Source of the DNA: Escherichia phage vB_Eco_F25 | DNA: 64,000 bases | Reading direction: 5' to 3' (one strand) | Sequence record: OP870144.1 | Shown: positions 2,720 through 51,593 of the stretch, one piece after another | How the letters are laid out: every line of letters starts with the position of its first letter | How positions within the stretch are numbered: position 1 is the first letter of the stretch | Program-made: the position numbers and the translations under genes | The notes under the pieces: generated by a model | What the model was told of the DNA's origin: nothing | The model's input: only the letters and a program-made list of their open reading frames with translations | Database searches by the model: none

Positions 2720-2744
2720 TTCAATATCCTCATTTGCCCAATTA

Positions 2745-2774
2745 ATTATACCACATCCTTGTGGTAAAGTAAAC
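2745..2774 (-). promoter_or_regulatory. T4-type early promoter (-35 GTTTAC, 18-nt spacer, -10 TATAAT)
   Basis: Minus strand GTTTAC(2774-2769)...TATAAT(2750-2745); overlaps the gene 39 stop; drives rIIA.1/rIIA. Confidence 0.6.
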
Positions 2775-4591
2775 TACTGGCTCATCCATTCTTTACGAAG
2801 GTCAGCATTATCTCCCATGAGCATTTCAAAAAGCTCTTTCCAATTCTCAGGAAGTTTAACAACATCATAAACTGGGTTTTGAATCATCTCACGATATTCA
2901 GATTTTTCCAAAGAGCCAAGTCCTTTAATATAACGGATGCTATGTTTAGGTAGAGCATCTTTGGCACTCTCATATTCAGCGACTGTATAAAACCATTCTT
3001 GTTTTTTACCGACCTGAGCGATGATTACAGGAGTTTTGACAAAGCGAATTCTTCCTTGTTCAAACAATTCTGGCCAATTACTAAAAAATCCGAGCAGAGA
3101 AGGATAAATGCTTCCTAGACCATCGTGGTCAGCATCAGTCATAATTGCAATATTATGATAATTCAAGTTTTCAGCTTTTTCACCAAGAACCAATCCAGTG
3201 ATTGCGCAAATATCAAACAGTTCTTTGTTTTTAAGCATATCAGCATATGACATACCCCAACTGTTGAGAACTTTACCACGCAATGGATAACCACCATGAA
3301 GTTCTTTATCACGAACATCAATAAGATATCCGATAGCAGAATCACCCTCAGTCAAGAAAAGAGTAGTATCAGCATCTTTACCACAAAGATTCGCTTTAAT
3401 ATGTTTATGAACCTTGGCTTTAGAAGCCTTTTTAGCTGCTTTAGTTTCAGCTGCTTTTTCTGCTGCCAATTTACGAGCCAAGGCAGCTTCAATAATTGGC
3501 ATTAAAATTGCTTCATTATTTAAAATAGCACGTGAAATCTTTTTAGCATCAAGCTGAATATGACTACGGATTTCACCAAATGGAGAAGTCAGACGCTCTT
3601 TAGTCTGAGAATCAAATCGCATGTTTTTCATATCACGAACAAACATAACGATAGTCAAACATTCTTTAACACGTGCTTTAGTTACATCAATTTTGAATTT
3701 ACGTTTGATTTGTGGAATAAGGTCTTCACAAATATCATCCATAACACAATCAATATGATGGCCACCATTCTTGGTATGAATGTTATTGACGTATGTTAAT
3801 TGACGAAAACCATCCGGTGAACGACCAACCGCAATAGAACAATTTTCTTGTTCTTGAACGATAGCATGTTCATCATATTGACGTGCATATTTCTTAAAAT
3901 TACCCTGAACCTTTTTACCATTAAAGGTAAATTGAATATCAGGATAAACTACCGCAAGTGTCTGGAGACGATCCAGCGTAATGTCAAGATAAACTTGAGA
4001 TAACTCATTAGTTTCAAATGACATAAAATCGGGAATGAAAGTAACGCGAGTTCCTTTCCATTTTCCAGGAATATCTTCCCATGATTTATTTTCCATGCCG
4101 TTTGAACAACGAACTACAATATTATTTTGACCGTCGCCAGTTTCACCGACAAACATCACAGAAAAAATGTTAGTTAAACTAGAACCAACACCATTCATAC
4201 CGCCAGTGACGCGTTCTTTATCATCACCAAAGTTACCGCCTGCTTTTGGAATAGTCCATGCAGCAACTGGGCCAGGAATTTCTTCACCGGTAGGTGTTTT
4301 AACCATCGCTTGTGGAATACCACGACCGTTATCTTCAACTGTTACTTGATTGTTTTTGATAGTAACATTAATTTTATTTGCGAATTTAAACTTAGTACGA
4401 ATACCTTCATCTACTGAGTTATCGATAATTTCATCAATAAGCTTAACAAGACCAGGTACATACTGAACACTTTCCCATTTACCAAACAGAAAGCGCTCAT
4501 GCATTTCATTAGCAGAAGAGCCAATATACATGCCGCTACGCTTTTTGATATGTTCAATATCGCTCAGAATTTTAATTTCATTCTTAATCAT
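2774..4591 (-). CDS. 39: DNA topoisomerase II large subunit, single 605-aa form (T4 gp39 plus gp60 equivalent)
   Basis: ATG at 4589-4591 (ORF-track start is GTG one codon upstream); MIKNEIKILSDIEHIKKRSGMYIGS GyrB-like ATPase N-terminus; no gene 60 split or mobA insertion. Confidence 0.9.
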   Translation of the reverse strand: MIKNEIKILSDIEHIKKRSGMYIGSSANEMHERFLFGKWESVQYVPGLVKLIDEIIDNSVDEGIRTKFKFANKINVTIKNNQVTVEDNGRGIPQAMVKTPTGEEIPGPVAAWTIPKAGGNFGDDKERVTGGMNGVGSSLTNIFSVMFVGETGDGQNNIVVRCSNGMENKSWEDIPGKWKGTRVTFIPDFMSFETNELSQVYLDITLDRLQTLAVVYPDIQFTFNGKKVQGNFKKYARQYDEHAIVQEQENCSIAVGRSPDGFRQLTYVNNIHTKNGGHHIDCVMDDICEDLIPQIKRKFKIDVTKARVKECLTIVMFVRDMKNMRFDSQTKERLTSPFGEIRSHIQLDAKKISRAILNNEAILMPIIEAALARKLAAEKAAETKAAKKASKAKVHKHIKANLCGKDADTTLFLTEGDSAIGYLIDVRDKELHGGYPLRGKVLNSWGMSYADMLKNKELFDICAITGLVLGEKAENLNYHNIAIMTDADHDGLGSIYPSLLGFFSNWPELFEQGRIRFVKTPVIIAQVGKKQEWFYTVAEYESAKDALPKHSIRYIKGLGSLEKSEYREMIQNPVYDVVKLPENWKELFEMLMGDNADLRKEWMSQ

Positions 4592-4643
4592 CACTTATCC
4601 TCGTTTGGTTTCGGGAATATTATACTCCAGTAATCATAAAGCT

Positions 4644-4661
4644 AAAGGCCCGAAGGCCTTT
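4644..4661 (-). terminator. UUCG-tetraloop hairpin (AAAGGCC-UUCG-GGCCUUU) downstream of lipoprotein gene
   Basis: Inverted repeat aaaggcc cgaa ggccttt read on the minus strand. Confidence 0.5.
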
Positions 4662-4921
4662 TATTTAAAACGAATAGTCGAATCCTTGAAGAAAAGACCA
4701 GAACATACTGTTCCTTCTACTTTCTGCCCGGTAGGTCCAATAGCACGAAATCCAGTATGCTGGAAATCATTTTCAGAGCAACCGAACCAATTATATCCAG
4801 TGATTTCAATATTAGTAAAACCACTTGAAGACAAAACTTTGGTTGCATTATCAGCATCAGTACATCCTACTAAAGATACTGCTAATACTAATGCTGCGAT
4901 AGAACGATTAACATATTTCAT
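4661..4921 (-). CDS. Putative lipoprotein
   Basis: ATG at 4919-4921; signal peptide with lipobox MKYVNRSIAALVLAVSLVGC. Confidence 0.6.
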   Translation of the reverse strand: MKYVNRSIAALVLAVSLVGCTDADNATKVLSSSGFTNIEITGYNWFGCSENDFQHTGFRAIGPTGQKVEGTVCSGLFFKDSTIRFK

Positions 4922-4925
4922 AATT

Positions 4926-5297
4926 TCACTCAAATTTAATGGCTTGAAGGAGACTAATAATTCTCAAGCGACTTCTTTCATCTTTAACTGTAAAAGAAAG
5001 AGGGTCACCAGATTTCATAGTGATAGTGCATTCAAAATCAAAATCTTCTGTAACTTCTTCGAAGAAGTCAAATTCTTCATCATAAATTAGAACATTACTC
5101 TGAAAACTATGAAGAATTTTTCCATCATTTCCAGATGCTGTACTAATCATTGTAACATTATGGCCTTTCATATCTTCAACGATAAATTCGCTTGTAGATA
5201 TTACAGTATTAATAGAACTATTCCTATAAATAGAAGAAAGTAGATATTTCTTTTCTTCACCTTCGCGAACACGATATTTCTTACCGATTTTAAACAT
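4926..5297 (-). CDS. Hypothetical protein
   Basis: ORF with ATG at 5295-5297 (track start at 5303 is GTG). Confidence 0.45.
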   Translation of the reverse strand: MFKIGKKYRVREGEEKKYLLSSIYRNSSINTVISTSEFIVEDMKGHNVTMISTASGNDGKILHSFQSNVLIYDEEFDFFEEVTEDFDFECTITMKSGDPLSFTVKDERSRLRIISLLQAIKFE

Positions 5298-5299
5298 AA

Positions 5300-5476
5300 T
5301 CACCCTTTAAGTAAGTCGTAAAATCCACCATTCACATGCTTAGGAGCAGAAGGCCGACGAGTAGACAAACGATGACATTTAGGGCAAACATCATTTTCTC
5401 GTTCAGAAATCTTTTTAATTTTTTCATATTCATGCCCACAATCTTCGGATTGGCATTTATAATCATACATTGGCAT
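5300..5476 (-). CDS. FmdB-family zinc-ribbon protein (58 aa), below the ORF-track size cut-off
   Basis: Translated by hand: MPMYDYKCQSEDCGHEYEKIKKISERENDVCPKCHRLSTRRPSAPKHVNGGFYDLLKG; CxxC...CxxC zinc ribbon. Confidence 0.6.
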   Translation of the reverse strand: MPMYDYKCQSEDCGHEYEKIKKISERENDVCPKCHRLSTRRPSAPKHVNGGFYDLLKG

Positions 5477-5478
5477 AA

Positions 5479-5898
5479 TTATTCCTTAAAATGTGCTTTC
5501 AACATCTGATACAAAGACCATGCATGTTCATTATTTTCAATAGTAACTTTCATTACCGGGAATTCTGTGAAATCTTCTATTTGTTCTTGCTCTTCCTGCT
5601 CTTGTTCTTCAGCAGCCTGATATGGATTTTCAACTTCATCAAAGAACCCAGCTTCACTTTTTGAAAGCCAAATAAAGTCTTCATCCAAAACATCTTTATC
5701 AGGAGATAGTACTAAATTTCCAGTAGATGACAAAATTTTAATAGGACGCCCAAGAGCGTCCACATCTAAAATTTTAAAAGGATACATACCTAAACGGCGC
5801 GCATAAATTCCGTTATTAATATGGTCTTTAATGAAATTTTCTTGAGCTTGTTTATTTTTAAATTGATACCATTTATTAACTTCAAATCTAATAGCCAT
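5479..5898 (-). CDS. Hypothetical protein with acidic [10 protein letters not shown] tract
   Basis: 139-aa ORF, ATG start, tightly packed. Confidence 0.5.
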
Positions 5899-6113
5899 TA
5901 ATAAATTTCCTTCCAGTAAGTTGTGCCATCTTCAGTAATTTCACGAAATACACCGTAAATTGGTTGTTTATCACCAACCTTTTCATACACATAAACCGAA
6001 GTCAAGTGGGTAAACTTAATGGTGTGTTCCTTTTGAACTACTACCAAATCTGGATCGAATAATACATCTTCAAATTCGTCATTAGTGCAGTTCTGAACAA
6101 TTTTACGTTTCAT
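5898..6113 (-). CDS. Hypothetical protein
   Basis: 71-aa ORF, ATG start overlapping upstream stop. Confidence 0.45.
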
Positions 6114-11852: not shown

Positions 11853-12455
11853 TTATAGATTAAATCCTTCAAAATCAAGAGTATAGATAGTGTATGTTGA
11901 ATACTTTTTATACTCATATCTATCCGCAATTCTAAATACACTTCCAGCTGGTATCATTACTTCTTGTTCATCTGAAACTAATTCCATATTACGATAGCGA
12001 TGGCTATCCGGAAACTTAAAACTTGGACTGTATTCTTTACAGCGTAGAGCTTTTATAGCATACTCCTGGAAATTAAATACCATAGGAGCTTTGAATTCAA
12101 AAATAACTTGTGTGTTGTATTCTAATCCAGAAGCAAAATGTAGAGCTATATTTTTATCATATGAAGCTGATACTACTTTATCAAATGTAATAATATCAAT
12201 TCCTTGATTTAACACTTGCTTAGTCTCAACTGGAACACCTCTCCAAAGAGGTTTATCGTTTGGTTCCAAACGAGATTTGATTATTTCATTTAACCAAGAG
12301 TGGTCGTCTGGCTTATTAGTAATACAATGAATTAAAAGTTCAATTTCGGATAAATTAAATCCTTCAGAAAGTAATTCTTCACGAATAGAAGCACGCACCG
12401 ATGCATCCATTGATTTGATTTTAAAATCTTTTAATTGCATTGCTGAATATTTCAT
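11853..12455 (-). CDS. modA: ADP-ribosyltransferase ModA
   Basis: 200 aa (same as T4 ModA); order srd-modA-modB; paralogous to the next gene. Confidence 0.75.
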   Translation of the reverse strand: MKYSAMQLKDFKIKSMDASVRASIREELLSEGFNLSEIELLIHCITNKPDDHSWLNEIIKSRLEPNDKPLWRGVPVETKQVLNQGIDIITFDKVVSASYDKNIALHFASGLEYNTQVIFEFKAPMVFNFQEYAIKALRCKEYSPSFKFPDSHRYRNMELVSDEQEVMIPAGSVFRIADRYEYKKYSTYTIYTLDFEGFNL

Positions 12456-13087
12456 TCAACTACCTCAATATCATACACTTTAAATGTTCCAAATGAATCG
12501 TGTAATTTTTCTTTTGAAATAGAAGTTATTTTATACTTTCCAATTGGAATCATCCATTCTTGTTCACGCACAATCATCATTAAGTTATCAGTACGTTCTG
12601 AATCTAATCCATCAGTATCTTCATATGTATACTTAAACTCAGTATTAGGAGAAGAAAGTATAATATCGCTGATATGGTCAGAGTAATTAAAAGCTTTATC
12701 AGTTTTTAAGCGAAGTACTATTTCAGTGAAATATTCAGCATAAGAAAAAGAACACGCTGTATGCAAACTAGTAGTAAATGAATCTACTCTGTTCGTTGAA
12801 AACACTTCTCCAACTTGTAAATCTTTAATGAGTTCTTTTGTCGATTTTGATATACCACGATATAGCTGATAAGGCGATTTAGTTAAATGCTTTTTAATGA
12901 TTTTATTCAACTGCCGATGAAGAGCTTCATTCTTTTTGGCTTCCATACATTGCCAAAGAACTGACTGTTCAAAGTCAGTAAATTTTTCACAGACCTTTTT
13001 ATACATATCATATTGAAAATCAACACTTTCAGCTTTTATAGATAACTGTTCAACATCTGCAAGATTAATAATCATGATAGCCTCCAT
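12452..13087 (-). CDS. modB: ADP-ribosyltransferase ModB
   Basis: 211 aa, overlapping the modA start; T4 ModB is about 207 aa. Confidence 0.7.
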   Translation of the reverse strand: MEAIMIINLADVEQLSIKAESVDFQYDMYKKVCEKFTDFEQSVLWQCMEAKKNEALHRQLNKIIKKHLTKSPYQLYRGISKSTKELIKDLQVGEVFSTNRVDSFTTSLHTACSFSYAEYFTEIVLRLKTDKAFNYSDHISDIILSSPNTEFKYTYEDTDGLDSERTDNLMMIVREQEWMIPIGKYKITSISKEKLHDSFGTFKVYDIEVVE

Positions 13088-43556: not shown

Positions 43557-43733
43557 TCAAGTATTGTAAAACATTCGATGCAATCGTTTATACTGTCGAA
43601 TCATCTTTTTAGTAGGACGAGAATAGATTCCTACGCAAGTAGTCATATGAGGGTCCGTAGAATGTCCTTTAATAAAAAGTTTCCAAACCTTACCGCCATT
43701 TAACTTTTCAGTATAAACCAATTCGGTTTTCAT
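43557..43733 (-). CDS. Hypothetical small protein (58 aa)
   Basis: Hand-translated ORF; ATG overlaps the upstream stop (TAATG); below ORF-track cut-off. Confidence 0.35.
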   Translation of the reverse strand: MKTELVYTEKLNGGKVWKLFIKGHSTDPHMTTCVGIYSRPTKKMIRQYKRLHRMFYNT

Positions 43734-44197
43734 TAAAATGCCCTGTCAGAAAAAGAATTTTGAGTTTCAAGCCATTCAATGTACTCTGCGGCAGCTTGCA
43801 TCAGGTTACCTTCATAGCCATCGTTATTTTCTTGTGCAGCTAATTTAGCTAATGCGTATGAAATACGTTCACCTTGAAAATCGGCTTTAGGCTTCTGAAC
43901 AACTTGATTAGTTCGCTCTACAACTTCTTCAATTTCGCCATTTTCGACTGATTCAGTATTCCACAAACACCAATACGTAATTGGCTTATCATAGATGTTA
44001 ATAATCTTTCCGTCGGAAAGTTCAATTTCAATAATTCCAGTATCAGGCTCTATATCATCTTCACATTCTTTTGCAAGTTCACGAACTTTAAAGACAGCAC
44101 CTGCACTAAGTTCCGGCCAGTAATTACACAGTCCTGTATCAGCACGATTAATTCTAAACCACTTATCTACTGTAATCATGTCCCATCTCCATATCAA
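43733..44197 (-). CDS. Hypothetical protein (T4 pin position)
   Basis: 154-aa ORF upstream of gene 49. Confidence 0.45.
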   Translation of the reverse strand: MIWRWDMITVDKWFRINRADTGLCNYWPELSAGAVFKVRELAKECEDDIEPDTGIIEIELSDGKIINIYDKPITYWCLWNTESVENGEIEEVVERTNQVVQKPKADFQGERISYALAKLAAQENNDGYEGNLMQAAAEYIEWLETQNSFSDRAF

Positions 44198-44951: not shown

Positions 44952-45209
44952 TTATTCCTTAATTCCTAGTACTCGTTTAAAAGTCTCGTCGTAATCAAGA
45001 CTTTGGCCCGTTTGTTCTTTATGTTTGTATATAATATCACTTACTTCTGATAGCATATTTTTATATGAACGAGTTAAAGCTGATTTAAGCACGCTGTATC
45101 TATCAGGAAATTTACCATGTTCATTATAATAAGCTATTGCTAATTCACGGACTGCCTTTTCAGCAGTCTCCATATATTCTTTACGCTTTGTCATTTTCTT
45201 CTCGGTCAA
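44952..45209 (-). CDS. Hypothetical protein
   Basis: 85-aa ORF. Confidence 0.45.
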
Positions 45210-45495
45210 ATCGGTGTTTACAATGGCGACATTTATAACGAAGATTATTAGTCTGCCAATGGACTAATTGCACCTGTTCAGTTCCACACTCAGGGCAATT
45301 AGGAACGTTTTTAGAAGCCCTTTCGCGACGTTCAACCATGACCATTACAGAATCCCAATTAATAGGGCTGCTATAATCATCACAACCGTGAATCTTTCCA
45401 CGCATTTCCAGATCGTCTTCTTCACCAGCCATAATAATTTTAATTAGACTAGAATTACTTGAAGCTGCAATGTCTTCTAATAGACGCTTTTTCAT
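45181..45495 (-). CDS. Hypothetical zinc-ribbon protein
   Basis: 104 aa; CPECG...CRHC motif. Confidence 0.45.
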
Positions 45496-46421
45496 TTCAA
45501 TACCTCAATAGCATTACGTAAACCATTTGCTTTTGCATTAAGAGCTTTTAACAATTTGGTGTGTTCTGCAATTTGGGCTTCAACTTCAATCAAACGAGCA
45601 TTGAGATATTCACGTTCTTCGCTCAAGTTATCAACCTTTTCTACTTTAGGTTCTTTTACAACTGGCTTATACGTATTAGGGTTCTTCAGTTTAATTAGAA
45701 TGCGTGAACTGTATAACATTGAACCATTATCTTCGGTTTCATCATACATTTCCACTACATCCATGATTTTTAACATCATGCGGAGTTTATAAGACAACGA
45801 ACGAATAGTTTTATTGTGCTTATTAATTTCTCTAGCTGTCATGGTGCCGAGATTACGTGAGTAATAATAAGGAACCTGGATATTAATTAATACTGATGAA
45901 CCTCCTGGCTTGTGTGTTACTTCATCAGCAATAACCCAGTCCTTAACATGAACTGTATTTGTACGGTCATCGCCCGCGGTAAATAGTTTGCGAGCATGCT
46001 TAAAAAGCATATTCACTTGGTCATTGAATTGACAAGCAAATTTATCAGCAAATTTAGTTTCAGGAATGGTAGATAACCAATCAGCCAAGTGGGTCTTTTT
46101 AACATCGTTAACAATAGTAAATTCAACCAAATCGGTTATAGATGTCGCAGTTTTAATGAATCTCGGCTTCATAAAGTTTTTAATGTTATCACTAGCTACA
46201 GTAGAAGATAACATACGAGAACGTTTAAACCATTCAAGCAAATTGCCTAACGAATGAGAATAAGCGTTTTGAGTATCTTTACAGATATGATTTTCCTGGC
46301 CAACATATTGAAGGAAATCACGAAGAATATTATTGATTACTGCTCTGTGTCCGATCTGATAATTACGGTGTTTAGTAATAAGACTATCAAAATAATCAAT
46401 ATAATGTTTACGAGTTTTCAT
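45492..46421 (-). CDS. Hypothetical protein with C-terminal coiled coil
   Basis: 309 aa; starts MKTRKHY; heptad-like C-terminus [33 protein letters not shown]. Confidence 0.5.
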   Translation of the reverse strand: MKTRKHYIDYFDSLITKHRNYQIGHRAVINNILRDFLQYVGQENHICKDTQNAYSHSLGNLLEWFKRSRMLSSTVASDNIKNFMKPRFIKTATSITDLVEFTIVNDVKKTHLADWLSTIPETKFADKFACQFNDQVNMLFKHARKLFTAGDDRTNTVHVKDWVIADEVTHKPGGSSVLINIQVPYYYSRNLGTMTAREINKHNKTIRSLSYKLRMMLKIMDVVEMYDETEDNGSMLYSSRILIKLKNPNTYKPVVKEPKVEKVDNLSEEREYLNARLIEVEAQIAEHTKLLKALNAKANGLRNAIEVLK

Positions 46422-46473
46422 GTTCTTCTCACTTGGTTAATGATTTATACTCCGAGCCATCCTTGGCTTTAAA

Positions 46474-47475
46474 TTACTTAATTAACTGTAAAGCTTGTTC
46501 AAGACGATCCAGGCGATTAGCAGATTCTTCCCAAATCCTTTTAGCCTGCTCATATTCTTTCTGCGCTTTATTAGAAATTTCTAGAGCTTCTTTATAAGCT
46601 TTTTCTAATGCAATAACTTCTGGACGAATTTCTACCGATTCAGGCGAATCGTCAAGACATTCCATTAGTTCCTCAAGGGTAGTTTCTTCTTTAGGAGTAT
46701 TCACAATTTCATCACATTTTTGTTGATAAATTTCTTTATCAGTAGGCGAATATGCACATTTCACTTCACGAAGACTAATTACAATTTTATATCCTTCCCA
46801 GCCGCACATATTCTTAAAAGGATATGTATGAATATTTTCTACTGTTTCCATACAAAGTAATGCGGTCTCTAATTGACGAGTTATAGTGCTAGCAATTGAG
46901 AAAAATTTATTAATGTTCTTTTGATTAGCTTCTGGTGTAAAAAATTCATAATTCACAAAAATAGCTACTTTATTTTTATCAAGTTCATATTCTTTTATGA
47001 TAATCATATCAGAAGCCAAAGGATGAATTTGACGATAATCGCCATAACATAATTTAGAAGCTGATTTTAGAATTTGTCCTCTGAAAAGTCTGAAATTACT
47101 AATCCAACGACGAGTAAAAATATTCTCAGGGTCTTCTTTGACATTAAGATGATAAGAATTAACATCACCGAACCAATTATATCCTACTACATCTTTGGTT
47201 CGTTTAATTTCTTTCCCAAAATTACCAAGAATATCCCGATTAACCAAATATGAAAGAAGACGAGACTCTTTAAAGGTTTTCTTGATAACATCTTTATCTA
47301 CACGGCTAGAAATTTTACGAATTTCATGAATAAATTTAGCAGAAGAAACAATACCTGCATCAACACTATTGAGCCACTGATTGATAATAGAAAGAACGCT
47401 ATTTTGGCCAAACATCGGTATAGCTTTATCATCAATAACGCTATTGAATGATTTGATATATTCGTTGCGAGTCAT
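46474..47475 (-). CDS. Hypothetical protein with C-terminal coiled coil
   Basis: ATG at 47473-47475 (MTRNEYIK...), downstream of the early promoter; C-terminus EYEQAKRIWEESANRLDRLEQALQLIK. Confidence 0.5.
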   Translation of the reverse strand: MTRNEYIKSFNSVIDDKAIPMFGQNSVLSIINQWLNSVDAGIVSSAKFIHEIRKISSRVDKDVIKKTFKESRLLSYLVNRDILGNFGKEIKRTKDVVGYNWFGDVNSYHLNVKEDPENIFTRRWISNFRLFRGQILKSASKLCYGDYRQIHPLASDMIIIKEYELDKNKVAIFVNYEFFTPEANQKNINKFFSIASTITRQLETALLCMETVENIHTYPFKNMCGWEGYKIVISLREVKCAYSPTDKEIYQQKCDEIVNTPKEETTLEELMECLDDSPESVEIRPEVIALEKAYKEALEISNKAQKEYEQAKRIWEESANRLDRLEQALQLIK

Positions 47476-47503
47476 AATAATCTCCTCAGTAGAAAGTAAG
47501 AAC

Positions 47504-47533
47504 ATTATACCACATCCTTGTGGCAAAGTAAAC
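47504..47533 (-). promoter_or_regulatory. T4-type early promoter, near-identical to 2745-2774
   Basis: GTTTAC(47533-47528), 18-nt spacer, TATAAT(47509-47504); about 31-bp core shared with the rIIA.1 promoter. Confidence 0.6.
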
Positions 47534-48537
47534 TAATTTAGTGCATTTAATGCATTGTTCAGTTTAGAACGTTGCTTTGTCAGATTTTGAACCCTTGACT
47601 GAGCTTGTTCTAACACCTTTTCAGCTTCTAGCATTTCATTGGTTGCTTTAACTAATTCATCATCTACTGCCTTGATAGACTTCTCAATAGCCTCGGCATG
47701 CCATTTTTCGACAGGTTTAAAATTTGAATTTTCAGTAGGAAGAAAACTCACTTTATTAAGTTTACATGCATCTATATTGCTTGAGCTATACATCCAAAAT
47801 TTAGAATCGTTTGATGAGTAGTTATCTTGCACTTCCTGCTTTTTCTCTTGCGGGACTTCGTCCTTTCTCAAAAAATCGTATTTAAATGAAACGATCATAT
47901 CAAGTTCATATGTTGTTGTGTCTAATTTAAATCGCTCAAAACGAGGTAAAATCTTAGACTGAACAGCGGAAACAACATCCATATACTTAAATGCTTCTGT
48001 CAACTGCGATTTAAGGCATTCGCAAATTGAAAGAGAATTTTTTGTATTAGGTTTAAAGCTAATTCGTGCAGTTCTGTTATTTTCTTTTAATGGTCTTACT
48101 TCCATCTGAAGAGTATAACCATCAAATTTCAGGTTCTTTAAGTTAATGTCAGAACCTTTTAATCGACTAGCCGTCGACAAAATTTGCTTTAATTGTTTAC
48201 GGAATAGAGCAATAAATCTCCATTCAATACGATAATGATTTGGATTAAAAAATCCAGATGATAAATCAACCTTACTCTGACCAACGCCTTGAACAAATAG
48301 AGGATTTTTATAATCAATAGTTTTACAGAAATCGGTGAGCTGCTCACGAGCCGTCATTTGTGTAATATACCCCGCTTTACTAAAATGACGTAACCATTCA
48401 CTGCTATTCATATATTTAAAGTGAATATCACGATTAACTTTATCAGGGTCTAAATTATTTTGGCACAAAAATGTCATAACATCACGAGTATAACTGGCAT
48501 TACGAACCATATCTTCAATTTGAGAACGAGTTTTCAT
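47533..48537 (-). CDS. Hypothetical protein with C-terminal coiled coil
   Basis: 334 aa; starts MKTRSQIEDM; C-terminus LEAEKVLEQAQSRVQNLTKQRSKLNNALNALN. Confidence 0.5.
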   Translation of the reverse strand: MKTRSQIEDMVRNASYTRDVMTFLCQNNLDPDKVNRDIHFKYMNSSEWLRHFSKAGYITQMTAREQLTDFCKTIDYKNPLFVQGVGQSKVDLSSGFFNPNHYRIEWRFIALFRKQLKQILSTASRLKGSDINLKNLKFDGYTLQMEVRPLKENNRTARISFKPNTKNSLSICECLKSQLTEAFKYMDVVSAVQSKILPRFERFKLDTTTYELDMIVSFKYDFLRKDEVPQEKKQEVQDNYSSNDSKFWMYSSSNIDACKLNKVSFLPTENSNFKPVEKWHAEAIEKSIKAVDDELVKATNEMLEAEKVLEQAQSRVQNLTKQRSKLNNALNALN

Positions 48538-48545
48538 GGTGTTCC

Positions 48546-49460
48546 TTAAGATTTAAGTAAATCGACAATTTTAATTAACTTTTCACGCTCAGATTTAGCT
48601 TTACTACTCAGTCCAGATAGTCTGAAAATTTCATCATCATATTGTTGAATAGAAATATTTAGCTCTTCAATCTGTTTATTAAAATAATCAATTTGTTCAG
48701 AATGTTTTTCGTTACTACGAAATGGTACAGGTTTTGTAGGCAATTTAGTTGAACTGGATTCATCCGGGCGATAAATTAAAATGCAATTTGAACCAATCGG
48801 ACATTTAGCACCAGATGAATATTCTAATGTTCCGGCTTCTTTTAAAACTTCAAAAGCTAAACAGAGATGATGCCCCATATTAACATAATCTGTAGAGCGA
48901 GCTCTGATGTAATAATCATCGCCACGAATACTAAATTTAAAGCATTTAAGGTCTTCTGTATTATTAGTTTTAAAAATCATTTGTTTATCTAGACCTTTAG
49001 CCAATCGAGCACCTAATGCTAATAATCGTCGTTGATTTTCCCGCAAATCCGCAATCATTTGGTCGAATGATAATTTCGGCATTAGTCGGCCATAAAGGTC
49101 ATATCCTTTATTATAATTACGAAGGATTTCACTCGCGTTAATACGAGACAACGCTCCAATTTTATTAAGGGCTTTCATAATGCGATTAGATAAACTCATT
49201 CCAGACCCATTTGTTCGCTGTAAATGTTTTTCTAATCCAAACCCAATATCAACTTTAAATTTATCTAAAATTTCGGTGTGAACGTCTCTGTCAATAGCAT
49301 TCAAATCCAAAGTTGGGTTAAATCTATGAAAAAATTTATCTGGCTCTCCACGACGAAGTACAGTCCATTCATTCATCATTTTTTTATTAACTAAAGATTT
49401 AATTACTGCATTGACATTATTAATTGCTACTGACATATTTTCCTCACTCAATTTTACCAA
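48546..49460 (-). CDS. Hypothetical protein with C-terminal coiled coil
   Basis: 304 aa; C-terminus QIDYFNKQIEELNISIQQYDDEIFRLSGLSSKAKSEREKLIKIVDLLKS. Confidence 0.5.
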   Translation of the reverse strand: MVKLSEENMSVAINNVNAVIKSLVNKKMMNEWTVLRRGEPDKFFHRFNPTLDLNAIDRDVHTEILDKFKVDIGFGLEKHLQRTNGSGMSLSNRIMKALNKIGALSRINASEILRNYNKGYDLYGRLMPKLSFDQMIADLRENQRRLLALGARLAKGLDKQMIFKTNNTEDLKCFKFSIRGDDYYIRARSTDYVNMGHHLCLAFEVLKEAGTLEYSSGAKCPIGSNCILIYRPDESSSTKLPTKPVPFRSNEKHSEQIDYFNKQIEELNISIQQYDDEIFRLSGLSSKAKSEREKLIKIVDLLKS

Positions 49461-50456: not shown

Positions 50457-50486
50457 ATAGTACCACAGAGGAACAGTCTTGTAAAC
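50457..50486 (-). promoter_or_regulatory. T4-type early promoter (-10 TACTAT) with conserved leader ACAACTATCAAC
   Basis: GTTTAC(50486-50481), 18-nt spacer, TACTAT(50462-50457). Confidence 0.5.
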
Positions 50487-50873: not shown

Positions 50874-51593
50874 TTAGGATTCTTCTAAATGTCTTTTCTG
50901 AAAAGTTGATACCATACTACGATACGGTTCATTTGGATATCCGTGTTTTATAGCTTCCTTTGTAAATTTTCTCCATCCGCATTTAGTTTCTTTCCAAAGC
51001 TCGAATAATTCATCTTCATACTGCCATATAGTTAAATGAGAACGCTTTGCAGCTTTAATTCCATTAATATGCTTTTCTTTTACTGCAGGATTGCTTAGTT
51101 TCTTTTTAATAATATTACTAACTTTTCTAACAAAAACCGGGTCCTTATATCGTTGCGAAGTTTTTATTGAAGTGTTTAATTTAGCTTCCGGCGTGGATGT
51201 GACCTCTTTCATCTTTTTCTTCATATGCTGTATATGATTAGGATTTTTCCATAAATTTATAGAATGCTTTTTGCATTTTATCCTAGTTTCATCTGCAACC
51301 TTTCCTCCTTCACCCCCGTATGACAGGTTAACACAGTTTTTTCCATATTTCAATTTACCTGCCATGATATATAATATTTCAGCTTGTACCATTTTATCAT
51401 AATTATCAAAAACTTCTAAAACCGTTTTTGATAATATGTGGTCATTTGACACTTTTACACGTTCTATATAATTTCCACTACCAACATACGAATCATTGAT
51501 GTTATTAGTTATATGTCGACCATAATAGTATTTCTTAATACCTGTCTTTAAATTTAATATTTCAGTTTTATAGATAGTAAAATATTTTTTCAT
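50874..51593 (-). CDS. GIY-YIG family homing endonuclease (Seg-like)
   Basis: 239 aa; N-terminal FTIYKTEILN...KYYYGRH GIY-YIG-type motif; C-terminal basic repeats SNPAVKEKH. Confidence 0.6.
   Translation of the reverse strand: MKKYFTIYKTEILNLKTGIKKYYYGRHITNNINDSYVGSGNYIERVKVSNDHILSKTVLEVFDNYDKMVQAEILYIMAGKLKYGKNCVNLSYGGEGGKVADETRIKCKKHSINLWKNPNHIQHMKKKMKEVTSTPEAKLNTSIKTSQRYKDPVFVRKVSNIIKKKLSNPAVKEKHINGIKAAKRSHLTIWQYEDELFELWKETKCGWRKFTKEAIKHGYPNEPYRSMVSTFQKRHLEES

Follow-up and report, generated by a model that had tools for sequence, protein, structure and literature searches.

NrdC.3 to NrdC.6 of T4-like phages: a probable family of diverged tandem paralogues and its possible role in counter-defence

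In the genome of Escherichia phage vB_Eco_F25 (OP870144.1), four consecutive minus-strand genes of similar size lie within the stretch of 64,000 nucleotides that was analysed here (the window). The question raised by this locus is whether the four genes are diverged tandem paralogues, as had been proposed from the letters of the sequence (the original prediction), and what such a family would do for the phage. T4 is the reference phage, yet functions have been assigned to only a minority of its accessory early genes. Alignment to the annotated T4 genome identified the four open reading frames (ORFs) as orthologues of T4 nrdC.3, nrdC.4, nrdC.5 and nrdC.6; their products are abbreviated C3, C4, C5 and C6. 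It was found that C3, C4 and C6 are very probably paralogues and that C5 is, with slightly less assurance, paralogous to them, and a set of counter-defence proteins is the function that we favour. Relative to the databases and papers searched, the new result is that these four proteins belong, with the products of single-copy genes adjacent to nrdC.2 in other genera, to a single family for which a domain plan can be given; the genes were already known as T4 ORFs, and the phenotype of nrdC.5 had been published.

Relationship among the four proteins

At the level of single sequences, the similarity was as weak as it had appeared by eye, BLASTP being significant for C3-C4 only (26% over 204 amino acids (aa), expectation value (E) 6e-7). 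In PHROGs, C3 and C4 were both assigned to phrog_1435, and C5 and C6 to two other families, while Pfam holds separate families for C4, C5 and C6. The Pfam model PF23882 (DUF7235) matched C5 over its full length with 373 bits (cutoff 30) and gave no match to C3, C4 or C6 at E<=1.

Comparison of the family alignments with HHalign connected C3 with C4 (probability 98%, E 6e-14) and C4 with C5 (84%, E 7.5e-6); C3-C5 reached 49%, and C6 compared directly with C3, C4 and C5 gave at most 14%. Further links were obtained through bridging relatives. Gp080 of Klebsiella phage Marfa matched C4 (96.7%, E 4e-10, 295 columns) and C5 (95%, E 2.5e-8). A bridge profile, built from single-copy genes of Kanagawavirus (IME523, Kosakonia 305 and PEi20) and Pectobacterium PM2, matched C5 (96.4%, E 1.2e-9, 236 columns), C6 (95.9%, E 6e-9, 158 columns) and the Marfa protein (96.4%).

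Because coiled-coil segments can inflate profile scores, all comparisons were repeated without the C-terminal helices. C3-C4 (98%), Marfa-C4 (96%), C4-C5 (78%, E 1.7e-5) and bridge-C6 (86%, E 5.5e-6) were retained. The bridge-C6 link thus held in two independent segments, since the C-terminus alone gave 84-87%. Profiles restricted to the C-terminus matched each other between families at 84-96%, and the C-terminal segment of C5 on its own reached 96% with Marfa gp080 and 94-95% with the bridge profile. In controls with reversed-column profiles, in which composition and periodicity are unchanged, these C-terminal matches fell to 2.5% or less, and the terminal helix of NrdC.8 gave at most 7%. Because the reversed-profile controls failed, the C-terminal similarity between the families is considered specific.

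The joint alignment of the family contained six colinear blocks: an N-terminal M(K)TRxE[YF]I; FKxS+hLSxxxA+xxLxNFG, which in C6 reads ALSRINASEILRNY; a helix hLxxASRLxxG; a helix ALxxMxxV flanked by two beta-hairpins; KP[VI]...E..[HY], which leads into the terminal helix; and a terminal KLxxAhxxLK. The MKTR/MTRN-type N-termini that had been pointed out in three of the proteins, MKTRKHY in C3, MTRNEY in C4 and MKTRSQ in C5, correspond to the first of these blocks.

AlphaFold2 models were available for C4 (predicted local distance difference test (pLDDT) 81.8, predicted template modelling score (pTM) 0.65) and C6 (pLDDT 78.1, pTM 0.66), each made from its own family alignment. Both models showed the same order of elements: a helical N-domain, a beta-hairpin, a helix, a beta-hairpin, a linker and a terminal helix or helices. 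When their DSSP assignments were compared through the sequence alignment, 66% of 244 positions agreed, versus 43 +/- 6% (maximum 56%) in shifted controls. In a Foldseek search of BFVD, the C4 model matched an NrdC.3 homologue (E 1.4e-8) and NrdC.6 of the phage JS10 (E 3.3e-5, probability 1.0, template modelling (TM) scores 0.40/0.46); these modest TM scores probably reflect the flexible multi-domain nature of the models. The C4 and C6 models both matched proteins of PM2, IME523, Acj9, Acj61 and fHe-Yen9-01, and no C5-family entry was obvious in the BFVD match lists of either model. The plan common to the family, of about 300-335 aa, would comprise a helical N-terminal domain bearing the second and third blocks, a small beta-hairpin/helix/beta-hairpin middle domain, a variable linker and a conserved C-terminal amphipathic heptad helix that finishes in the sixth block.

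The heptad-like C-terminal helices noticed in each of the four proteins were borne out, marginally in the case of C3, by a 3.5-residue hydrophobic periodicity over the last 42 residues (p<=0.001 in both C4 and C5, 0.016 in C6 and 0.07 in C3) and by the C4 and C6 models. In the same test, the neighbouring proteins NrdC.7 and NrdC.9 showed no significant periodicity. The C-terminal helix was the best conserved segment within each family, that of C3 included; identity within the family was 71% in the C4 helix versus 46-54% in the rest of the protein, and 66% in the C6 helices versus 34-42% in the rest. Such a helix might oligomerise as a coiled coil.

Two results weigh against a common origin of all four proteins. 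A deep hidden Markov model (HMM) search with the C3+C4 profile against 1.84 billion representative proteins gave 10 matches only, including the bridging 315-aa protein of Klebsiella Marfa-like phages (P0235), and reached no protein of the C5 or C6 families. In addition, removal of the C-terminus lowered Marfa-C5 to 5.8% and bridge-C5 to 15.5%; therefore, both of these links were carried mainly by the C-terminal segment, and outside it the 78% match between the N-terminal and middle parts of C4 and C5 is the one sequence-profile tie that holds C5 in the family. If the four genes were unrelated, with their similar sizes and their terminal heptad helices due to convergent evolution or a compositional bias, the failure of the deep search to connect them would be expected, as would non-significant BLASTP results other than C3-C4, direct C6 profile matches of 14% or less and three separate families in Pfam and PHROGs. 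However, such an origin does not agree with transitive profile links of 95-98% that are supported outside the helix, with the failure of the reversed-profile controls, with the Foldseek cross-matches and the congruent secondary structure, or with the finding that the bridging genes occupy the same conserved genomic position. Convergence is therefore regarded as largely refuted and very improbable, and the diverged tandem paralogue family proposed originally is upheld by the HHalign links, the bridging relatives, the C4 and C6 models and the Foldseek cross-matches.

NrdC.8, a protein of 175 aa with a similar-looking C-terminal helix, was considered as a truncated member and rejected, since HHalign gave at most 2% against every family profile. 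A tblastn search with the PM2 member did not widen the family past Kanagawavirus, and the family is found only in T4-like phages. In Acinetobacter phage Acj61, two adjacent genes, p120 and p121 (3452-4444 and 4558-5472 of the fetched locus; 330 and 304 aa), are located between nrdC and nrdC.10. Their products have heptad-like helix ends and both are Foldseek matches of the C4 model, p121 (E5E4A2) also of the C6 model; HHalign against the family gave at most 2.4%, the link being structural and syntenic only. Within the subfamily Twarogvirinae, these two genes may represent a tandem pair of this fold that formed independently.

Organisation, expression signals and variation of the locus

The four-gene block is flanked by nrdC, nrdC.1 and nrdC.2 on one side and by nrdC.7 to nrdC.10 on the other (Table 1). 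The 45-50 kb part of the window was 97.6% identical over 5 kb to Escherichia phage vB_EcoM_ECO78, and the same region was matched by 741 phage records, nearly all of them Tequatrovirus. C5 was 91% identical to T4 NrdC.5 over 100% of its length, and its gene has the same position in the gene order, between nrdC.6 and nrdC.4. Three of the four originally predicted pairs of gene ends were exact. In nrdC.6, the start was moved from TTG 49460 to ATG 49436 because a GAGG Shine-Dalgarno sequence precedes the latter, the PHROG alignment covers the longer form from residue 9 only and the homologues all begin with MS; TTG 49460 was thereby ruled out. Longer forms of nrdC.4 (343 and 350 aa) were also rejected, since a GAGGAG Shine-Dalgarno sequence precedes ATG 47475 and the ATG of the 343-aa form lies inside the -10 element of a promoter.

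Table 1. Coordinates in the window of the nrdC.3-nrdC.6 block and of the features discussed with it
Feature	Coordinates	Strand	Description
nrdC.2	45181..45495	-	104 aa; zinc-ribbon-like, CPECG...CRHC; context gene, outside the family
nrdC.3 (C3)	45492..46421	-	309 aa; identified by ORF, T4 annotation, phrog_1435 and HHalign to C4
C3 C-terminal amphipathic helix region	45495..45635	-	residues ~263-309; 83% of a/d positions L/I/V/M/A
nrdC.4 (C4)	46474..47475	-	333 aa
C4 C-terminal single long helix	46480..46623	-	residues 285-332, 48 residues; DSSP of AlphaFold2 model
Early-type promoter match	47503..47533	-	GTTTAC, 15-nt spacer, TGGTATAAT; upstream of nrdC.4
nrdC.5 (C5)	47533..48537	-	334 aa; Pfam DUF7235
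C5 C-terminal helix region	47536..47691	-	residues ~283-334; 92% of a/d positions hydrophobic
nrdC.6 (C6)	48546..49436	-	296 aa after start correction
C6 C-terminal helix-turn-helix	48552..48710	-	residues 243-272 and 278-295; DSSP of AlphaFold2 model

The early-type promoter match between nrdC.5 and nrdC.4 has the sequence GTTTACTTTGCCACAAGGATGTGGTATAATG. The original prediction had described it as nearly identical to the rIIA.1 promoter, and it was indeed identical at 29 of 31 positions, spacer included, to the site 2744-2774(-), which stands upstream of the ORF in the rIIA.1 position; the chance expectation for such a pair is 0. In the whole window, the T4 early-promoter pattern occurred at 11 sites versus 0.03 expected. 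By its match to the consensus, the site would be an active promoter. Given its location between nrdC.5 and nrdC.4, transcription from it would cover nrdC.4 and, presumably, the downstream genes nrdC.3 and nrdC.2. Another early-like site was found ahead of nrdC.8 (50457-50485) and an extended -10 element ahead of nrdC.7; a simple pattern scan of 44-52 kb gave neither MotA-box middle promoters nor late TATAAATA promoters.

The two near-identical early-type promoters are about 44.7 kb apart, and their common spacer holds the palindrome CCACAAGGATGTGG; the spacers of the remaining early-type promoters in the window differ from it. A regulator site and a recombination footprint are both possibilities for the conserved spacer.

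The position of the family in the genome was conserved. In the window and 8 other phages of 6 genera, nrdC and nrdC.10 enclose its genes, one of which lies directly upstream of nrdC.2. Marfa, IME523, Kosakonia 305, PEi20 and PM2 have one family member, adjoining nrdC.2. A 4-nucleotide overlap between the stop of the family gene and the start of nrdC.2 was present in the window and in JS10, SP18, VR20, Marfa, IME523, PM2, PEi20 and Kosakonia 305; in the window, nrdC.3 occupies this position (45492-45495). The overlap suggests translational coupling and perhaps functional pairing with NrdC.2. The matches of nrdC.2 to zinc-ribbon models of Pfam were weak and all under the cutoff, and NrdC.2 homologues are very variable (49-97% identity).

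Copy number differed between lineages. The Dhakavirus/Gaprivervirus phages JS10, VR20, TH44 and SP18 carry three genes, encoding C6, a short C5-like protein and C4, and lack C3. A Tequatrovirus lineage (L006/L007) carries C3, a C5-like protein with 24% identity and a C6-like protein with 33% identity, and lacks C4. It appears that the ancestral state was a single copy overlapping nrdC.2, which was expanded to 3-4 copies in the T-even coliphages. With tblastn, C3 was found in 653 phage records, C4 in 553, C5 in 563 and C6 in 741.

Divergent alleles were found within Tequatrovirus itself. C3 occurs there in three allele classes (about 95% or more, 76% and 60% identity); compared with T4, C3 was 61% identical and its neighbours 95-100%. 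The C5-like and C6-like proteins of L006 contrast with nrdD, gp49 and nrdC of the same phage, which were 90-98% identical to those of the window. As judged by these comparisons, the four genes change much faster than their neighbours (nrdC.2 and nrdC.7 excepted for the ratio of nonsynonymous to synonymous substitution rates (dN/dS)) and are swapped as divergent alleles.

Broken copies were common, and rearranged ones were also observed. Phage G8 (193+158 aa) and one locus (L004) have nrdC.4 in two pieces, as SP18 has its C5-like gene (170+125 aa). In a 167-kb phage contig, a 299-aa protein (P0057) has the middle of NrdC.5 joined out of register to the C-terminal half of NrdC.3, which implies a deletion that removed nrdC.4; a chimeric C5/C3 protein also bears PF26897, the label of C4. 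In reference T4 (NC_000866), nrdC.6 (12008-12894 of the fetched locus) has a 1-nucleotide deletion near codon 260 relative to the window gene. The T4 gene is annotated as 275 aa, with most of the C-terminal helices lost, and the missing 37 residues are present in another frame at 97% identity; by this comparison, the laboratory T4 allele of nrdC.6 seems to be frameshifted, unless an error in sequencing accounts for the difference. Because frameshifted, split and fused copies are found in natural phages and in reference T4, the genes are considered dispensable in the laboratory. In the Shigella phages Sf25 (P0123, 378 aa) and Sf22, about 82 residues are repeated in tandem within NrdC.6, from the middle domain to the start of the C-terminal helix.

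Several peculiarities were noted among the neighbouring genes. An ORF of 239 aa at 50874-51593(-), between nrdC.9 and nrdC.10, was absent from T4 and all other fetched loci; it matched the homing endonucleases of PHROG 314 (E 4e-30) and no Pfam model, and is probably a mobile endonuclease insertion. Of two minus-strand ORFs at 43557-43733 and 43733-44197, one has a PinA protease-inhibitor domain and is followed by the other, a separate 58-aa DUF7279 ORF whose last ~15 residues resemble the C-terminal end of T4-type Pin (161 aa). The T4-type pin may be a fusion made by deletion, or the window may carry an insertion. In L006/L007 (9253-9666) and in PM2 (5531-5950), a gene for an nrdC.7-like membrane protein is found beyond the opposite end of the block of paralogues, close to nrdC. 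Therefore, the neighbours of the block have been rearranged between lineages.

Possible function of the family

The only experimental information concerns T4 nrdC.5, which was classed among the early genes (Srikant, Guegler & Laub, eLife 2022, PMC9391042). A T4 deletion mutant did not plate on E. coli ECOR17 or on MG1655 carrying ECOR17 dsr1, the gene of the SIR2-family defence protein Dsr1, and nrdC.5 alone, expressed from a plasmid, restored plating on the Dsr1-carrying cells; neither paralogy nor the mechanism of NrdC.5 was described in that work (PMC9391042). A 2026 preprint reports recognition of phage major capsid proteins by the TPR sensor of Dsr1. A literature search found no functional study of nrdC.3, nrdC.4 or nrdC.6.

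Because a copy of nrdC.5 allows T4 to grow on Dsr1 cells, the family is read as a counter-defence set. On the whole, we think it fairly probable that NrdC.3 to NrdC.6 form one T4-like family of early cytoplasmic counter-defence (host-range) proteins, each with a different target. Transmembrane segments and CxxC motifs were found in none of the four proteins, whose isoelectric points (pI) are 6.2-9.4, and from sequence we think them soluble and cytoplasmic. The likeliest mode of action would be direct stoichiometric binding to an immune protein before the late-protein trigger appears. Binding of NrdC.5 would block Dsr1 sensing or activation of its NADase, by analogy with DSAD1 and DSR2. The paralogues would have diverged toward other host immune proteins, which makes C3, C4 and C6 candidate counter-defence proteins; the variable N-terminal and middle domains would set specificity, while self-association or a contact common to the family would fall to the conserved C-terminal helix.

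Several observations weigh against this reading. The phenotype exists for NrdC.5 only, and for the T4 protein rather than that of the window, and its effect on Dsr1 is possibly indirect. C3, C4 and C6 have no link to any defence system, and searches of PADLOC, NCBIfam and PDB sequences returned nothing usable: the sole match among the PADLOC models was BrxC, to the coiled-coil region of C4 (E 0.01, not significant), NCBIfam gave nothing above cutoff for the four proteins, and the PDB sequences matched by the C4 profile were all designed helical repeats (E>=0.003). A basic pI of 9.2-9.4 in three of the four proteins would also be compatible with nucleic-acid binding. Among close alleles, dN/dS was 0.14-0.20 for the four genes and 0.01-0.10 for nrdD, gp49, nrdC, nrdC.1 and nrdC.8 to nrdC.10, and it was as high or higher in nrdC.2 (0.18) and nrdC.7 (0.30), the elevation thus not being specific. 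A direct signature of positive selection was absent, the values of the four genes being well under 1; they therefore indicate purifying selection with faster protein change, from which positive selection is not demonstrable.

The main rival accepts the four proteins as true paralogues and assigns them another role, that of an early host-takeover or nucleic-acid-binding and regulatory family, the Dsr1 effect being indirect or special. The basic pI, the coupling to the zinc-ribbon protein NrdC.2 and a weak XerC/D-like match of the N-domain would fit it; however, the similarity scores lie far under the family cutoffs (18 bits vs 279), dispensable genes that are often broken or swapped agree better with an accessory host-range function than with core regulation, and plasmid-borne NrdC.5 is by itself sufficient to restore plating on Dsr1 cells. 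Another role is accordingly judged unlikely, though it is the explanation to be taken most seriously after counter-defence. The XerC/D-like match was also examined as evidence of a tyrosine recombinase N-terminal SAM-like domain, which was rejected: the 18 bits were obtained with residues 30-88 of C3 against NF001399, and Phage_int_SAM_1 gave E 0.11.

As an extension of the counter-defence reading, the family might be a modular platform, in which the C-terminal helix and a small tail-terminator-like middle domain serve as scaffold and a fast-evolving N-domain directs each paralogue to another host immune sensor, Dsr1 in the case of NrdC.5, which the proteins might fill early in infection as decoys of late structural proteins; this proposal is speculative and rather doubtful. 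If it were true, the best-studied phage would encode, in nrdC.3, nrdC.4 and nrdC.6, three inhibitors of further defence systems that have so far escaped notice. That the proteins are themselves early decoys, which mimic a conserved late structural protein and fill the sensor domains of immune receptors without activating them, is a model based on the tail-terminator-like domain that is weakly supported and improbable. An Ocr-type DNA mimic is unlikely, since the proteins are basic or mildly acidic and not strongly acidic. Finally, many matching GenBank records of nrdC.3 to nrdC.8 homologues carry the product name 'thioredoxin', but an identity as thioredoxins or as redox proteins associated with ribonucleotide reductase is hardly credible, considering that no thioredoxin or glutaredoxin model of Pfam or NCBIfam matched, CxxC is lacking and the C4 and C6 models do not have a thioredoxin fold, and the label most likely reflects a mistake in annotation that was propagated from gene names of the type nrdC.N.

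As paralogues of nrdC.5, three anonymous T4 ORFs become testable host-range or anti-immunity candidates. The variable N-terminal part and the conserved C-terminal helix provide a domain map for swap and truncation constructs. Because nrdC.6 of reference T4 appears to be frameshifted, experiments confined to T4 could miss the function of NrdC.6.

Comparison with known systems

The closest known protein is T4 NrdC.5 (DUF7235, PF23882). C5 of the window is its orthologue, with the same position and a full-length match, whereas C3, C4 and C6 are remote paralogues of the same architecture that the DUF7235 model did not detect. A working analogy is offered by DSAD1 (PMC10973363, PMC10981675, PMC11087589), a phage protein that inhibits the SIR2 NADase of DSR2 by binding its sensor domain; like NrdC.5, it neutralises a defence-associated sirtuin. 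DSAD1 comes from Bacillus phages and its target is DSR2, and it is likened to NrdC.5 by described role.

The internal proteins IPI, IPII and IPIII of T4 resemble the family as variable, dispensable accessory sets of T-even phages that are gained and lost, each member being directed against a different host barrier: IPI acts against GmrSD, and growth on ECOR17 requires IPIII. However, the internal proteins are packaged and injected by means of a capsid-targeting sequence, whereas NrdC.3 to NrdC.6 lack such a signal and their genes follow early-type promoter matches. The two sets are not homologous.

The tail-terminator or tail-completion fold (lambda gpU, SPP1 gp17-like, T5 p142) matched a single domain with Z <8 at 5-10% identity, and unrelated nitroreductases scored about equally. 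Since nrdC.3 to nrdC.6 lie in a non-structural region behind early-type promoter matches, a gpU-like tail terminator was rejected as their identity.

The databases already hold the four proteins as three families with no assigned function, PHROG 1435, 2351 and 2257 and Pfam PF26897, PF23882 and PF26899. Through the bridging single-copy genes, these three families can be merged into one superfamily.

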